From Somniosus microcephalus (taxonomy: Eukaryota): 64,000 nucleotides of DNA. The notes under the pieces are model-generated. The model worked only from the letters and a program-made list of their open reading frames with translations. It did no database searches and was not told the origin of the DNA. Below are positions 6,925 through 61,463 of the stretch, piece after piece. The first letter of the stretch is position 1. Every line of letters starts with the position of its first letter. The stretch is from NCBI GenBank assembly GCA_052327205.1, contig CM126223.1, positions 43,028,001 through 43,092,000 on the forward strand. The letters are read 5' to 3'. The translations under genes and the position numbers were made by a program.

Positions 6925-7560
6925 TTTAAAAAAAATCTCCAACAATAATTAAAATCTGAAGGAATGAGACATCAAACTTTTAAAAGTAAATTTTCAGTAC
7001 CAGAGAGGTGTTTGGCAGAAATTAAGACTTGATACGCTGTTAAAAATTCATTTACACTTGAATGTTCAAGCCCCAACTAGTCCTGACGGAGGGTCTTCGA
7101 CCTGAAACGTTAACTCTTTTTCTCTCTCCACGGATGTTGCCTGGCCTGCTGAGTTTTTCCAGCGTTTCCTGTTGTTATTCCTCACTTTTTCTGGTGTTTA
7201 GTGGGTATCTAGTGGGGCTCGAGTAGAGCATAAACACCGGCGTGAACTGGTTGGGCCGAAAGGTCTGTTTCTGTGCCATATATATCCTATGTAATCCTAG
7301 TGGGTAAGTACCCCAAATTCACGTCCTTCATGTATCTGAATGCCGAGTCTCTCGGCAAGGTATCAGTGTAGCGAAGCTTGTGGAGGAGCAGGGCAACTCG
7401 GACAGCAACTTCCTGATTTCCGTGTTTATCTTCGCCTGTGCAGACCATTATACGATGTGCTAAATCTAGGCCAATGTGTGCCACTACTGTCCGATTTACT
7501 CCTTTATAGCGGTGAGCGCCGATAGCCTCACCATTATTTTAACTGCAAAATCTGGGCCAT
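6925..7560 (-). mobile_element. Old non-autonomous DNA-transposon-like repeat, same family as 37972-38527, with nested inserts
   Basis: Ends ...ACTGCAAAATCTGGGCCA. The internal TTTTCAGT..ATACGCTGTTAAAA segment matches the reverse complement of ~38280-38360. Confidence 0.5.
7078..7180 (+). mobile_element. Penelope-like terminal repeat (family B), solo copy with mutated minimal hammerhead
   Basis: AGTC-CTGACGG-AGGGTCTTCGACCT-GAAA-CGTT-AACT...GATGTTGCCTGGCCTGCTGAG; homologous to the terminus of the GIY-YIG element at 21973-22508. Confidence 0.8.
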
Positions 7561-8505: not shown

Positions 8506-9788
8506 TTCCTGGTCGGCATCTGTCAACGTTCAATGCGCTGGACAACTGCATCAACTACAATAGGAAGAGAGACCGCTATAATAGATTTTATTGAGAGTAA
8601 ACAAAGAACTACTTCTGTTCTTTAGTTTTTGTAACTTTCCCTAATTCTATCCATTCTTTAATATAAAGTATAGGTAATTTAAGTTAATTTACTTGCAGAT
8701 GTTTAGCTCTTGTTCCCAATGCGGTCTCATTTTGACTGAACACCCAAGTATAAAAGCTTTAGCATAAAATTGGTATTCACTAAATGTGGGGCTCACTGTA
8801 TCAGCGAAGTTCTTTTTAAACCTGTTGCTGAATATAGGTGTGTGGCATTCCACTTACTGCCTGTAGGTGGTGAGTGAATTACACAAAACAGGAATTACAA
8901 GTTTCTATCTTCACTCTTGTGAAAGAAGAGCTTGATTGATCAGAGTGGTTTATGGTCAGAATCCAATAATCAAAATACAGTCTTAAAACTCTCAGCATAA
9001 TCTATATCTTTTCGTATTATTATAGGTGAAAGGGTAGAAAACCAGACTGTGACAACTGACATTAAGTAACAGCTAAAACAGTTTAGATTTGCTTTTTCAG
9101 TAACCAATTACCAGTAAATATTATAAATGGCCAGTAAATATTATAAATGCATGACCCTGCTTCATAGATATGAAAGGTTTAATTTAAAAAAGAAATCAAA
9201 AAACCAAAGCACACCGTAAGAATTATTTGCTTCTTAAAATCCCACCTCGCTTTTATACAGCGAGCCACCAGTATTCCCCACTTTAAGTTTCCACTGACAC
9301 TGCAGTTTCTCTTTAGACTACAGGACTTCTCAAAATGCCAGTAAGCCAGTTTGTCCCCTTCCTGCACAAAGGCTGAACTGTTAGTCTGAGACAAATGCTG
9401 ATTATCATAATTCAAGGGGATAACCCTTGGTTGTACTATTTGAAAAAAAAACAGAATGCATTTGAACCCAGGATATTATTTTAACAACTTGCATTTCTAC
9501 GTCGCTCCTTATGTGCAGAGACACATCTCAAAGCAGTGGAGAAATAGCCACAGAGCAGGAGGAAAAAGAGAATAGAGAGGCTAAGGGTTGCAAAAGCATG
9601 ATCAAAGAAAAGGGACTTAAAGCCACTCGAAAACACAAAGAGAGGTGGTGAGGTGTGTAGTGTATGTACCTTTAAGAGCCCCTGTGTACTGTAATACCCA
9701 TGGTGTGGAGATGCCGGAGTTGGACTGGGGTGGACAAATGTAAGAAGTCACACAACACCAGGTTATAGTCCAACAGCTTTATTTGAAA

Positions 9789-9825
9789 TCACAAGCTTTC
9801 GGAGCGCTGCTCCTTCGTCAGGTGA
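9789..9825 (-). ncRNA. Minimal type-I hammerhead ribozyme motif (family A), minus-strand copy
   Basis: Exact reverse complement of 10429-10465. Confidence 0.75.
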
Positions 9826-10428
9826 AGTGGAGAAATGCATAAAGACAGAGAATCATGTCAGATGTTTACAGGTAATCTTGCCAACTGCCCTTTATCACAC
9901 CTCGGCAGAGAGATAATCACAGCAATCAAAGGTGTGAATGGTGTCCAAACAGGTCAGTCAGGAAAACATTACATCAAAGAACAATGAGGTGGGGTCACAA
10001 GGGGTCAAATATTGCAGATGCTGGGGTCTGTATGAAAAACAAAAAAAGACAAAAAACCTTTTTTTTTTTGCTGGAAATCACAGCAGGTCCGGCCGTATCG
10101 GTGTAGAGAGAACAAGCCAATGTCGACTTGGCTTGTTCTCTCTACACCGATACGGCCGGACCTGCTGTGATTTCCAGCAAAAAAAACCCTGTTTTTTTGT
10201 TTTTCATACAGACCCCAGCATCTGCAATATCTGGCCCCTTGTGACCCCACCTCATTGTTCTTTGATGTAATGTTTTCCTGACTGACCTGTTTGGACACCA
10301 TTCACACCTTTGATTGCTGTGATTATCTCTCTGCCGAGGTGTGATAAATGGCAGTTGGCAAGATTACCTGTAAACATCTGACATGATTCTCTGACTATAT
10401 AAGCTGTGTCTTTATGCATTTCTCCACT

Positions 10429-10465
10429 TCACCTGACGAAGGAGCAGCGCTCCGAAAGCTTGTGA
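10429..10465 (+). ncRNA. Minimal type-I hammerhead ribozyme motif (family A)
   Basis: TCAC-CTGACGA-A-GGAGC-AGC-GCTCC-GAAA-GC-TT-GTGA. Core CUGAnGA and GAAA, 5-bp stem II, stem I TCAC/GTGA, palindromic AAGCTT stem III; predicted cleavage after 10461. This matches the minimal hammerheads described from Penelope-like elements. Confidence 0.75.
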
Positions 10466-11113
10466 TTTCAAATAAAGCTGTTGGACTATAACCTGGTGTT
10501 GTGTGACTTCTTACTGTAACCACTCGGGCTTTATAAGCCTGTATAGTGTCTTGTATTTTCTAGTTCACCTCCAGACTTTGTTCAGTAAACACCTGTTAAA
10601 CCAACTCCTGCATTCCATGTCTCCATTAACACACGGATACAACAGTGGCGACGAATTGGAAACGGACTTACCTGCAATTCGGCAGCACCTCAAGGAGATC
10701 GATTCCTCAGACGAAGGTCGAAGAAAAAAAAAACTGTGGTTTCACCAGCTTGCCGGGCTGGTGGCAGGTACTGCACTAATCCTTCCTGGGCGGCGGGCTG
10801 GGGCTCGATCGGGTGGCGCTGCAGCGGGGCCGAGCAGCGAGTCGGAAGGCGGAGGCAAACAGAGACGGAGGGTGGAGCACTCGGGAGACGGCCGGCGCTG
10901 CAAAGCAGGTCGGCGTTCGGACCAAGCAGAGGGAGGGAAAAGTCCCAGAGAGTCCGGCGGGAACGAGTCTCCAACTATTAAAAATATGTGTAAATAAAAA
11001 CCGCGTAGAACAGCATTGTCAGCAGCGGCAGCAGCGGGAAAGCGCGGGAGACGCCATTTTTTCTTGGCAGGGAAGAAAGGAAAGTGAGGGAGGCGCCATT
11101 TTTGATTTTCAGG

Positions 11114-14100
11114 ATGCCTAAGACTGGCAATATTACTGCTTTCGATAGTGATATAGAGGATTAGACCACATATGTGGAAAGAGTGGAGGTATATTGCACA
11201 GCGAATGAAGTAGAGGATGATAAAAAGGCATCGGTACTTCTAAATCTGATGGGCGCAAGGACATACGGGCTGTTACGAAACTTAATCACTCCAGCCAAAC
11301 CGATGGACAAGAATTTTAAGGAGATTGTTGATACCCTACAGGAGCACTTAAACCCAACACCGCTGCTGATAGCGGAACAATTCAAATTCTTCAGGAGGAA
11401 TCAGCACAAGAATGAAAGTAACGCTGATTACCTCACCGAATTAAGAAAGCACTGCCAATTCGGGGCAGGACTGGCAGATTCTCTACGAGACAAATTCGTC
11501 TGCGGTCTCCTAAGTGAAGGAACACAGAAAAGGCTACTTTCTGAGAAAGATTTGACACTGGACAAGGCTTTCAGTGTGGCTGTATCATACGAAGCAGCAG
11601 CAAGAGGAGCTGCAGAGATACAGCAAAAGCCACAGGACTTCGGCACCCATGAAATGACATGGGGTTTCGAGAGATGTTATCGCTGCGGCAGATCCACCCA
11701 TGACCACAGGGGCTGCTGGTTCAAGGACAAAGCATGCAGGCAATGCAGAAAGATGGGACACATTGCACGTGTATGCCGATCTGGAAACAAAAAATCCACT
11801 GACAGAAAAAAAATCAATAAGGAAAAGTACAGAAAGGTACAAATGATGACGGACAGTAGCTCCGAAGACCAGAAGAGTGACAGCGACTCCCGAAACAAGA
11901 GACTAAGCTGTCTCAAATTACATAATGTAATTGCCAAAGAAGATTACCAGACCATTTGGGTTACCCTCACGATAGCGGGGTCCCCAGTTAAAATGGAGCT
12001 AGATACAGGATCAGCTCTGACCGTCATAAGTCGACGGGATTACGAGCGGCTATTTCCGCATATACCTTTGAAAGACACATCCATTATCTTGAAGACATAT
12101 ACGGGGCAGAAAGTATACCCCAGAGGGAAAATAAGGGTGCCTGTTGTATACAACGGCAAGGAAATACAGAAGTTGTATTTATACGTTCTGCAAGATGGTG
12201 GTCCACCGCTGTTGGGACGTGAATGGATCAGGAAGATACGTTTAGACTGGCACTCCATTCAGGCACTGACGGTGACCAGTAAGAAAAACAATGATGATGA
12301 CGTCATACCTGAACGATTAAAAGACATCTTGGCCAACGCCAAAGAAGTGTTTCAACAGGAACTAGGAACCTTGAAAGGCGTCACCGCCTCAATAAAAGTG
12401 GAAAATGCGGCAATTCCCAAGTTTTTTAAGGCAAGACCGGTGCCATACGCAATTCGTCCAGCAGTCGAGGCAGAGCTGGAGAATTTGGAAAAGGCAGGCG
12501 TGTTATCCAAGATAGATTGGAGCGAGTGGGCAACACCCATCGTCCCGGTCATGAAGAAAACGTTGAATAATGATAAATCTGAAGAACAGAGAAAAATTTG
12601 CATCTGTGGGGACTTCAAGGTGACTGTAAACCCGGTCCTTCACACGGTACAGTATCCTCTTCCGAGGATAGAAGATATTTTCGCCTCACTATCCGGAGGG
12701 AAATGTTTCACCAAAATTGACTTGGCACAGGCATATCTACAGATGGAGGTTGAGGAGGCCTCTAAAAAGTATCTCACGATAAACACACACAAAGGCCTGT
12801 ACCAGTACAATCGACTGGTTTTCGGAGTAGCATCAGCTCCAGCTATCTGGCAAAGAGCTATGGAGCAAGTCCTGCAAGGGATTCCGGGGACTCAATGCTA
12901 CCTAGACGACATCCTTGTAACAGGAGAAAACGACAACGAGCACCTTGCCAATTTGGAGCAGGTGCTCACTAGGCTGAGAGAACGGGGCCTACGAGCAAAT
13001 CGCCCCAAGTGCGAATTTTTCCAGAAACAAATATCATATTGTGGCCATATAATTAACGAAGAAGGGTTGCATAAATCACCTGAAAAAATTGAAGTGGTCA
13101 TAAAAGCCCCAGCACCTGAAAATGTCTCACAATTAAGGTCGTTCCTGGGATTGATAAATTACTATCATAAATTTTTACCGAACTTGTCGACTGTTCTGCA
13201 CCCTCTTAACGCACTGCTACAAACGGGAGTAATTTGGAAATGGAGCGAAGACTGTAAACGTGCCTTCCATAAATGCAAAGGCTTGATCACGCCCAAGGAA
13301 GTGTTGGCTCATTACAACCCATCACTGCCAATCAGACTGGCGTGCGATGCATCCCCTTACGGCGTAGGTGCGGTATTATCGCATAGATTCCCTGATGGCT
13401 CGGAGCGGCCGATAGCTTTTGCGTCACGCTCATTGAACTCAGCTGAGCGTAACTATGCCCAGATCGACAGGGAAGCACTCAGCCTGGTATGGGGAGTGAA
13501 GAAATTCAACCATTACCTACACGGACAAAAATTTACCTCGTTGACTGACCATCAACCCCTCGTCTCCATATTCAACCCTAAAAAGGGCGTTCCCATTATG
13601 ACAGCGCAAAGGCTACAGAGGTGGTCCCTTTTCCTAGGGGCACACCAATATGACATAGAATACAAAGGATCAAAACAGCATGGGAATGCTGACGGGTTAT
13701 CGCGCCTACCGTTGCCAACGGTAGAAGAGACACCTACAGTGGACCCAGTGGAGATGTTCCACTCAACCATAGTGGAATGTCTACCAGTAACAAATTCTAC
13801 CATTGAAAAGGAAACGAGAAATGACCCGACTCTCTCACGAGTCTACGATTTAATGGTGAAGGGATGGCCAGCACATGGCGAACCACTGTTGCCAGCATTC
13901 TCGCAAAGAAGAGAACAGCTGTCAGTGTGCCGAGGAACCTTGATGTGTGGATCCAGAGTGGTGATTCCACCCAAACTCCAGGATAAAGTGCTAAAGGAGC
14001 TTCACGAGGGGCATCTGGGTGGAGTGAAAATGAAGAACCTAGCCAGAGCGTTTGTGTGGTAGCCAGGTATCGATGGAGACATCGAAGAAATGACCAAGAG

Positions 14101-15076
14101 CTGTCTAGGATGCCAGAAGGTCCAAAACGCCCCACCACAAGCCCCTCTACATCCATGGGAGTGGCCCTCATCTCCATGGCAAAGGGTACACATCGACTTT
14201 GCTGGTCCATTTATGGACTCAATATTCTTAATCGCATTTGATGCACACTCCAAGTGGCCGGAGGTAATAAAGATGTCCTCCACCACCACGGAAAAAACCA
14301 TCACAGTATTAAGGACCATATTTGCCAGGAATGGGCTGCCTGAACAGATCTGTTCTGATAATGGACCGCAATTTGTGTCCGAAGAATTCAGGAAGTTCTT
14401 AAAAAACAATGGGGTTAAGCACTACACGTCCGCCCCATACCATCCCGCCACCAATGGATTAGCTGAAAGGTTTGTCCAGACCTTCAAGAAGGCCATAAAA
14501 GCCATGGGTAATGAAGACATAAATCTACAACATAAGGTAGATAACTTCTTGTTTGCATACAGGAATGCAACACATGTGGTTACAAACCAAACTCCCGCCA
14601 TGATGTTTTTCAATAGAAGACTAAGATGCCGGCTGGATTTGATCAAGCCAAACATCAGAAGGGACATAAAGAACCGGCAATTTCAAGGCATGAATGAAAG
14701 GCCAACTAGAACCTTCCAGATAGGTCAACAAGTTTTGGCCCGGGACTACCGTACCGAGAAATGGCAGCCTGGAACTATTTGCACATGACTAGGACCTCTG
14801 ATGTATACCATGGACATTGGAGAAAGCATAATAAGGCGCCATGCTGACCAGATCATAGAGTCATCCGAAAAGGGACAACCTACACCACAACTCTATACGC
14901 CTAATGATGAAGCAGAGATACCCATAGTATCTACCTCCGATCCGGTGATACTGGAACCAGATGAACCCGACACTGGCATTCAAGCCAAATCGACCTTGCC
15001 AAAAGAAACTACTACACCACCGAGGCGTTATCCGGACCAAGTCAGGAAGCCTCCAGAGAGACTGACTTATAATTGA
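11114..15076 (+). pseudogene. Gypsy gag-pol polyprotein (Gag zinc knuckles, protease, RT, RNase H, integrase) with 3 premature stops
   Basis: One reading frame from ATG 11114. Motifs: CYRCGRSTHDHRGC and CRQCRKMGHIARVC; LDTGS; YLDD; CDASPYGVGAVL; H-H-C-C; HIDFAGP..SDNGPQF..NGLAER. Stops at 11162 (TAG), 14060 (TAG) and 14786 (TGA); no frameshift. Confidence 0.93.
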
Positions 15077-15394
15077 TTAACTGCAGCAAATGTGTAGATT
15101 ATTGTTCTTGTAAACATGTTAATTAATGATTACTTAAAATGTTATGTACTAATTATCTAAAAGGGGAGGAATTGTAGTGTATGTACCTTTAAGAGCCCCT
15201 GTGTACTGTAATACCGGTAGTGACCACTCGGGCTATATAAGCCTGTATAGTGTCTTGTATTTTTTAGTTCACCTCCAGACTTTGTTCAGTAAACACCTGT
15301 TAAACCAACTCCTGCATTCCGTGTCTCCATTAATACACGGATACAACAAAGTGCATGGGAAATGAGTGGCTATCAATGAAGAAGCAATCGAGTG

Positions 15395-17204: not shown

Positions 17205-17651
17205 TGGGGTTGCCAATTCTGGTTGGAGATAATCCTGGAAGTTTCAAGCGCGCCGAGCTGTCCCCACCCCCGTCGGGAGCCCAACACGTCCACCCAATTG
17301 GAAATTGAAAAGTCTCTTCCATTCCCCATTGGAAGATTCTTGACATAACAGAAAATGCTGGAAAAACTCAGCAGGCCAGGCAACATCCGTGGAGAGAAAA
17401 TAGAGTTAACATTTCGGGTCAAACCCTTTGTCAAGACAAAGATTCTTGAGAGTCAGTTAACAGCCTTCCTCCCCCCCCCCCAATCACCAATATTCCCATA
17501 ACTAGTAAATGAAAGCATTCAAAGAAAATGCAAAAATCAATTATTTTCAATGCCCTATGATTTTTCTCCCGGGTTGCTTGCAGCGGTGTCATAGAGATTC
17601 ATCTTGAATTCCTGGAGATTTCACGACAATCTTGGAAGGTTGGCAACCCGA
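17205..17651. mobile_element. hAT (Tip100-like) MITE
   Basis: TIRs TGGGGTTGCCAA / TTGGCAACCCGA; 8-bp TSD TCTAAGAT (17197-17204) / TCTAAAAT (17652-17659). Confidence 0.8.
17344..17438 (-). mobile_element. Solo Penelope family-B terminal repeat nested in the MITE
   Basis: Flanked by the 11-bp direct repeat AAGATTCTTGA (17333-17343, 17439-17449); decayed hammerhead TTGACAA-AGGGTTTGACCC-GAAA-TGTTAAC. Confidence 0.8.
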
Positions 17652-21972: not shown

Positions 21973-22508
21973 AAAGAACAAGAAGAAAATACTGCAGATG
22001 CTGGAAATCAAATAAAAACAGAAAATGCTGGGGATACTCAGCAGGTCAGGCAGCATATGTGAAGAGAGAAACAGAGTTAATGTTTCAGGTCGATGACCTT
22101 TTGTCAGCATTGGAAAAAAAAAAAACAGGAAATGGAACAGATTTTTACGCAAGTGTAGGGGCTGGGAAAGGGGTTGAAAGAACAAAAGGGAAGGTCTGTG
22201 ATAGGATAGAAGGCAGGAGAGGTTAAGAGACGGTAATGGGACAGGTTAAGAAACAAAGGATGGCTCTAGGTGAAATGTAAATTGCGCTGGCAGAATGAAA
22301 GACAACTGCCATGTGAGAGAGAAGAAAAGACACAAACAAAAGGTGTGGATAAAAAAAATATATATATAGGATAGGGGCCGAGGTTGTGATCTGAAATTGT
22401 TGAACTCTATGTTGAGTCCAGAAGGCTGTAAAGTGCCTAACCGAAAGATGAGGTGCTGTTCCTCGAGCTTACGCTGAGCTTCAGTGGAACAATGCAAGAG
22501 GCCGAGGA
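21973..22508 (-). mobile_element. 5'-truncated Penelope-like element: GIY-YIG endonuclease C-terminus, 3' UTR and family-B terminal repeat
   Basis: ORF 22246-22497 EAQRKLEEQHLIFRLGTLQPSGLN resembles the PLE endonuclease C-terminal LxTLxPxGLN motif. Decayed hammerhead at ~22075-22110; 9-bp TSD CTAATACTT (21964-21972, 22509-22517). Confidence 0.85.

Positions 22509-25952: not shown

Positions 25953-61463
<35,511 letters not shown>

Follow-up and report, generated by a model that had tools for sequence, protein, structure and literature searches.

A head-to-head pair of Penelope-like 3' ends with a hammerhead on each strand, probably a single insertion in a Gypsy-type LTR of Somniosus microcephalus

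The stretch of Somniosus microcephalus DNA analysed here (64,000 nucleotides, hereafter the window) contains, within an LTR of a Ty3/Gypsy-type element, a palindrome of 775 bp (9740-10514 in the assembly sequence) which carries a hammerhead ribozyme motif on each of its strands. The question raised by this locus is whether such a structure is a replicating entity in its own right, viz. a fold-back non-autonomous family or a viroid/retrozyme-like RNA as suggested in the initial annotation, or the product of an insertion by an element of a known kind. The results presented below make it highly probable that the palindrome arose as one 5'-truncated insertion from an abundant EN+ Penelope-like element, consisting of two head-to-head 3' ends, where both cut ends of the target likely primed cDNA from the same source RNA.

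The palindrome as first described is confirmed to be real in the assembly. When 9740-10124 is globally aligned with 10125-10514 in reverse complement, the reported differences between the arms are borne out, viz. three substitutions, one 15-bp gap in the left arm, a block of A/T runs that differs and one extra T at the centre. The tail and the hammerheads on both strands are present as well; a repeat search within the window returned the arms as three pieces (91-99%). The features of the palindrome are listed below, with family positions counted from the pLTR end (window position 10514), which is taken as 0; on this scale the stop codon of the family ORF lies at -440.

9699-9739, minus strand: tail of 41 bp, lying between the pLTR end and the ATG with which the ORF of the Penelope element begins; in long copies it runs into the ORF
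9740-10127, minus strand: left arm, Penelope-like 3' UTR/pLTR from -409 to 0, with a 15-bp deletion absent from other copies
9789-9825, minus strand: type I minimal hammerhead whose cut is predicted between 9793 and 9792
10121-10127, no strand assigned: junction, 7 nt of one arm only, with the self-complementary hexamer GTCGAC; single occurrence in the genome
10128-10514, plus strand: right arm, the same 3' UTR/pLTR, stopping at the pLTR end and tail-less
10429-10465, plus strand: minimal type I hammerhead, predicted cut 10461/10462

The tailed arm spans -409 to +40 and the tail-less arm about -402 to 0, and both are non-coding because the stop codon is located 5' of both of these extents. The palindrome had been called spacer-less, and it is correct that no loop is visible at its centre; however, 7 nt (10121-10127) belong to one arm only, six of them being the family's own GTCGAC, and the loop is invisible because the family itself reads this self-complementary hexamer at -409. 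The absence of a real ORF also stands, as the only two ORFs of at least 100 codons that overlap the palindrome (9938-10270 and 10503-10997) have no Pfam match. The former was considered as a coding sequence and rejected, since it further does not resemble the last 220 residues of the parent protein. A search against Rfam gave no match to a hammerhead model, the only matches being weak ones to microRNA hairpins and tRNA, all below the gathering score.

The location of the insertion inside a Gypsy LTR is likewise upheld. The palindrome splits the 5' LTR (9656-10644) of an element whose 3' LTR is at 15173-15348, and the two direct LTRs together with the pol order protease-RT-RNase H-integrase identify the host as a Ty3/Gypsy-type element. 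The features of the host element and of the target site are as follows.

9656-9698, plus strand: portion of the 5' LTR left of the insertion, matching 15173-15215 of the 3' LTR
9687-9698, plus strand: left copy of the inferred 12-bp target-site duplication, its first 8 bp repeated at 10512-10519
10512-10519, plus strand: right target-site copy, 8 remaining bp (the first 3 common with the pLTR end), followed by a 12-bp loss
10520-10644, plus strand: portion of the 5' LTR on the right-hand side of the insertion, containing a TATA-like word (about 10530-10537)
11174-14788, plus strand: gag-pol part of the host element, lying in two frames (protease, RT, RNase H; integrase)
15173-15348, plus strand: 3' LTR, unbroken, displaying the empty site

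Over 168 compared bases, the 5' and 3' LTRs show 4 differences. On the right side 8 of the 12 bp of the target duplication are kept, and relative to the empty site, which is seen in the 3' LTR and in all 11 other LTR copies, 12 bp are missing after this remnant. The TATA-like word at about 10530-10537 may represent the LTR promoter; as the palindrome is upstream of it, this promoter probably would not transcribe the insert. Elsewhere in the window, a second head-to-head palindrome from a different repeat family is present at 39641-39833, with 95-nt arms lying 3 nt apart; a minimal hammerhead, on the minus strand from 39736, is intact in one arm and damaged in its core in the other, and related single copies are found at 7084-7179, 17330-17400, 22005-22107 and 57515-57564. 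At 24-1082 of the window, long open frames overlap on both strands, which is probably a tandem repeat.

The identity of the arms is indicated by their relatives in the same genome (6.4 Gb). A search with the right arm gave 1,217 candidates, and all 40 that were scored match it, 39 of them being other places at 95-97% and the remaining one its own left arm at 92%. In all 29 other loci that were fetched the arm extends upstream into a common family 3' UTR, which in the longer ones extends on into the end of a GIY-YIG-type ORF. One natural copy, L032, contains a stop-free frame of 920 codons, which the window copy lacks, with a reverse transcriptase (Pfam RVT_1, E 2.4e-10) and a GIY-YIG domain at E 2.5e-4 and 21.7 bits, slightly below the cut-off of 22.6. 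Direct reading of the family protein shows two Cys between GIY and YIG and two His downstream, and a GIY-YIG at the C-terminus, bearing a CCHH motif, forms part of the definition of EN+ Penelope-like elements given in PMC8557442. Further, the parent family has a single ORF with RT and C-terminal GIY-YIG, pLTRs from partial tandems, inverted copies, a tail of 30-40 bp and a hammerhead in the pLTR, all of which characterise this group. The RT-EN linker in the family frames is C-x4-C-x2-C, in accordance with the pattern CX2-5CxxC given for the Neptune clade (PMC8557442), and by this linker motif the family is Neptune-like and not Poseidon. A search of PDB sequences with the parent protein gave no match. 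The 35-mer of the hammerhead has 10,109 exact matches genome-wide (5,122 + 4,987), and the reversed-pattern control has none. Based on these sequence comparisons, both arms of the palindrome come from an autonomous Penelope-like retroelement with RT and C-terminal GIY-YIG and correspond to its non-coding 3' end (pLTR), and the family copies thus support the earlier description of an inverted Penelope-derived pLTR with a tail and minimal hammerheads.

In L032 a second hammerhead-shaped motif (1490-1550 of this locus, minus strand; about -430 to -403 of the family) is found directly after the stop codon. It has a 5-bp stem II and an altered core (A9, A14 and the 15.1-16.1 pair), resembles the hammerhead of the other family at window position 39736 and may be a relic. 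The window junction falls at the 3' edge of this motif as it is seen in L032, with the motif lying just 5' of the junction.

The frequency of the head-to-head layout was determined in the surroundings of the first 100 matches listed for the hammerhead 35-mer (contig C1, 0.5-46 Mb), which correspond to 84 loci, two of them duplicates of one segment. Head-to-head pairs are present in 51 of the 84 loci, a proportion which is probably somewhat high as choosing loci by an intact hammerhead favours two-armed ones, and tail-to-tail pairs are present in none. After setting aside seven pairs as complex (one arm being short of the 3' end), 44 simple pairs remain. A single tail of about 40 bp is present in 41 of these 44, and in 41 of them the gap or overlap between the arms is at most 12 nt; both arms are wholly non-coding in 30, and in 16 they are non-coding with a complete hammerhead in each arm. 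Direct repeats of 10-15 bp flank 29 of the 41 pairs that were scanned, their length being 12-13 bp in 22. The window copy is odd in its symmetry alone, the arms being within 20 nt of each other in 2 of the 13 pairs in which both arms are at least 200 nt long. Hence, the head-to-head pair is a routine insertion product of the parent family and the commonest layout in the 84-locus sample; extrapolating from 51 of 84 loci and 10,109 hammerhead matches, the window palindrome is one of probably thousands of like insertions. In one locus (L067:506-578) the arms are separated by a 73-nt filler, itself a hairpin of non-family sequence.

This layout is also known from published work. EN+ Penelope-like elements produce complex insertions (Craig et al. 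2021, PMC8557442; Arkhipova et al. 2013, PMC3846280) in which an inverted 5'-truncated copy is located directly at the 5' end, the orientation is head-to-head with a tail of 30-40 bp at one end only, and palindromes at the inverted junction, a target duplication and a pLTR hammerhead are found as well; the inverted truncated copy and the one-sided tail are described in these papers as typical. The window copy differs from them in that its arms are wholly non-coding and nearly equal in length and its duplication is partly deleted, which are differences of degree only. The palindrome is thus ordinary, an instance of the already published architecture of an inverted pLTR with a tail.

The junction at its centre requires separate consideration. 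The 29-mer across the centre has one exact match genome-wide, and a 23-mer over the junction with up to two mismatches finds one further place, L210, where a solo copy (1508-1953) begins at this hexamer too (-409) and is preceded by a short inverted snippet. The window junction is thus private, and -409 is a recurring stop. Contigs of four public runs (X1-X4) do not extend over 10136-10165 and leave the palindrome centre uncrossed, whereas the related junction of L210 is present in the contigs of three of them (X1, X2 and X3), as might be expected if a read folded back on itself had given rise to the palindrome during assembly. However, the absence of the centre from these contigs may equally reflect a polymorphic insertion or the loss of hairpins in short-read data, and a fold-back read would not readily explain arms that differ by three substitutions, a 15-bp deletion and run lengths, for flanks that are not mirrored but represent two halves of one LTR with a duplication remnant, or for a tail on one side only, as in the family pairs described above. 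An artefact of this sort is therefore regarded as highly improbable.

How the two arms came to be joined can be explained by a model that takes as its basis the family membership, the arm extents, the tail on one arm, the duplication remnant, the unique junction and the common layout, and to which we add, by inference, a staggered cut, two priming sites, a stall, and annealing with fill-in. According to this model, the GIY-YIG nuclease would cut the target in a staggered manner about 12 bp apart. Priming from one cut end would take place at position 0, the pLTR end, and priming from the other some 40 nt further downstream, at the ATG of the ORF, giving the tail. Both cDNAs would stall near -409, where short palindromes overlap and a local hairpin has its 3' side, and would then anneal via the self-complementary GTCGAC and be filled in, the hammerhead on each strand being a passenger of the duplicated pLTR. 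Biochemical precedent is provided by the purified Penelope-like protein of Anolis, which cleaves both strands and extends them, starting at two sites on either side of the tail (PMC11167929). This element, PAc (Anolis carolinensis; Frangieh et al. 2024, PMC11167929), resembles the window's family in its two adjacent RT start sites bracketing the tail and in that both target strands are cut and extended, with the hammerhead unneeded for insertion in vitro. However, PAc belongs to Poseidon whereas the window's family, with its C-x4-C-x2-C linker, is Neptune-like by motif, and in PAc the start sites and the hammerhead cut are inside the ORF start, while the window's family has its hammerhead in the pLTR and a tail that ends at the ATG.

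The main alternative is that a single cDNA, initiated from the tail, came to a halt at -409, folded back at GTCGAC and was extended on itself as far as the pLTR end. Self-priming of this kind has been proposed for the inverted junctions of rotifer Penelope-like elements (PMC3846280), and the near-perfect symmetry of the window copy, its longer arm being the tailed one, and the private variants common to both arms (-381 and -377, present in none of the 29 best-hit copies and in none of the 25-26 sampled arms) are all in accordance with it. However, in 20 of 41 family pairs the 5' reach of the tail-less arm exceeds that of the tailed arm, the difference being over 20 nt in 13 and up to about 900 nt, and a single folded-back cDNA is excluded for those pairs because copy-back cannot outreach the first strand, nor can it add a tail that is missing from the first strand. 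Further, the tail-less arm ends at a fixed position near 0, which copy-back leaves unexplained. For the window copy, the formation of both arms from one cDNA is thus a possibility that we consider rather unlikely.

Returning to two-ended priming, a common source for the two arms of a pair is suggested by several observations. Arm lengths within pairs are correlated (rho 0.79); the divergence is 2.3% from arm to arm versus 4.4% between loci, with the arms being closer in 39 of 40 pairs; and at 16 family-polymorphic sites the arms of a pair agree in 289 of 316 comparisons, with 207 expected if they were independent. The window arms, too, have the private variants at -381 and -377 in common. As regards the stall, the independent solo copy L210 also stops at -409 with its short inverted snippet. 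However, the likeness between arms could also be due to later gene conversion instead of a common template; the tailed arm of the window copy is the longer one (by 7 nt) and the argument for two primings comes from the family; the symmetry of the window copy is uncommon among the long pairs; and the sample was selected for an intact hammerhead and covers the first 46 Mb of C1. Priming twice on one source, with the products joined at an inverted microhomology, is nonetheless the simplest reading of the family data and of the activity reported in vitro (PMC11167929). A literature search on Penelope, twin priming and inverted arms found nothing on point by title or abstract start, in a coverage largely without subscription journals. 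Of the 136 sampled arms, 24 begin at family positions -90 to -83, the front edge of hammerhead stem I, in a sample that required an intact ribozyme; this pile-up of 5' ends could be either an RT stall or an RNA start site.

The proposal that the palindrome belongs to an undescribed fold-back non-autonomous family predicts the same junction at independent sites. For the window palindrome no such site was found: the search for further copies of the whole unit located its junction once in the genome, and the pairs in the sample mostly differ in their junctions. With its central junction at this one place only, the palindrome is not supported as a fold-back family. In favour of a fold-back, non-autonomous element propagating as an intact unit are two other loci on C1, L068 (354-717, at 35.38 Mb) and L071 (376-741, at 42.18 Mb), which have one junction in common, with a 4-nt insert, and share an arm-specific difference at -133, yet are 6.8 Mb apart in different flanks, each with its own duplication of 12-15 bp. 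The likeness of these loci could be explained by whole-unit copying or by ectopic conversion; conversion between existing palindromes fits equally, their junction has just two exact matches in total, at these loci only, and even with two mismatches the window junction leads only to L210, a solo copy. Taking these observations together, copying of the window palindrome as a whole unit is considered very unlikely. A related suggestion is that head-to-head stubs of this kind record priming from two ends by the element's enzyme on one source RNA, and that some of them are re-copied whole, junction included, giving rise to a nascent fold-back non-autonomous class of Penelope elements. Whole re-copying is conceivable because each strand of the palindrome contains a sense pLTR, and if it took place L068 and L071 would be an example and the window copy so far a single potential founder; we regard this suggestion as doubtful, with a small chance of being correct.

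The significance of the two ribozyme motifs must be interpreted in the light of their position. Identical minimal hammerheads are present at 10429-10465 (plus) and 9825-9789 (minus), of type I with a 4-bp stem I, an extra A after A9, a 5-bp stem II and a palindromic 15.1-16.1 core. The minimal hammerheads of metazoan Penelope-like elements (Cervera and de la Pena 2014, PMC4209133) are also of type I without stem III, with an extra nucleotide between 9 and 10.1, a G10.1-C11.1 pair and a palindromic 15.2-16.2, and relative to their description in that paper no difference was found at the motif level. A dimer has been proposed for them (PMC4209133); however, the two hammerheads of the palindrome occupy opposite strands, and dimerisation within a single transcript is not possible. 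Folded alone, the ribozyme is no better than shuffled sequences (z -0.1 and -0.9). In a read-through RNA, 750 of 816 nt are predicted to pair in a long rod, as had been anticipated, with all 37 nt of the ribozyme paired with the antisense arm that is transcribed first, and forcing the ribozyme structure within this RNA is predicted to cost about 69 kcal/mol. Since the ribozyme lies downstream of its own complement and is predicted to be fully paired, the read-through RNA would be a dsRNA rod and not a self-cleaving replicon, and the ribozyme is predicted to be off within it.

A viroid- or retrozyme-like RNA, in which ribozymes working in both polarities would lead to cutting and circularisation, is thus not supported here, despite the intact catalytic core on both strands and the rod-like predicted fold. 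A single ribozyme per strand provides no tandem unit to excise and no cis-dimer, and it is predicted to be completely paired with the earlier-transcribed arm. Minimal hammerheads are reported to lack cleavage as monomers and to have low activity as dimers (PMC4209133), and the Anolis hammerhead needed protein and was dispensable for insertion in vitro (PMC11167929). The presence of 10,109 copies of a 35-mer which spans the cut site further indicates that most templates are copied uncut. Non-LTR retrozymes (bioRxiv 10.64898/2026.07.22.740005) are similar in being non-coding, related to pLTRs and equipped with a type I hammerhead, but they are described as units in head-to-tail tandem order, with two or more ribozymes following one another on the same strand, whereas the window palindrome is an inverted pair with one ribozyme per strand and a unique junction. 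A replicating RNA of this type is considered extremely improbable.

Genomic traces of cleavage were also looked for. A rule that full-length copies begin at the hammerhead cut site (-52) was rejected, as only 2 of 30 ORF-start copies lie within 3 nt of it and L032, one of its two first examples, has the whole ribozyme upstream; none of the 136 sampled arms starts at -56 to -49, in a sample biased against such starts. Junction-like starts number 113 at -52 versus 60 at the control position -46, but this excess is not evidence of cleavage because several of 20 inspected cases join via the 4-nt complementarity of stem I. No good genomic sign of cleavage in vivo was therefore found among the ORF-start copies, the junction-like starts and the 136 sampled arms.

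The remaining consequence to be considered is that of the duplex itself. Read-through of the copy could produce a duplex of about 385 bp that buries the ribozyme, and its role as a potential source of siRNA is plausible. In Drosophila, inverted-repeat copies of Penelope similarly contain long inverted repeats that would give dsRNA, and siRNAs have been mapped to their inverted regions (PMC3681739); the insert in the window differs in lying upstream of the TATA-like word of the LTR, and for it a role in siRNA production is a prediction. Reads of two RNA runs (X23 and X24) match in both orientations, mostly at 90-99% likeness, and thus are largely from other copies; among the public runs, none with RNA could be attributed to the window copy.

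For the question of how Penelope elements build their inverted ends, the family as a data set is more useful than this single copy. The regularities that it offers for testing are one tail per pair, either arm being the longer, a common source haplotype, and joins at inverted microhomologies. Further, with short perfect hairpins in such numbers, the genome may produce large amounts of dsRNA directed against the element that is most active in it.
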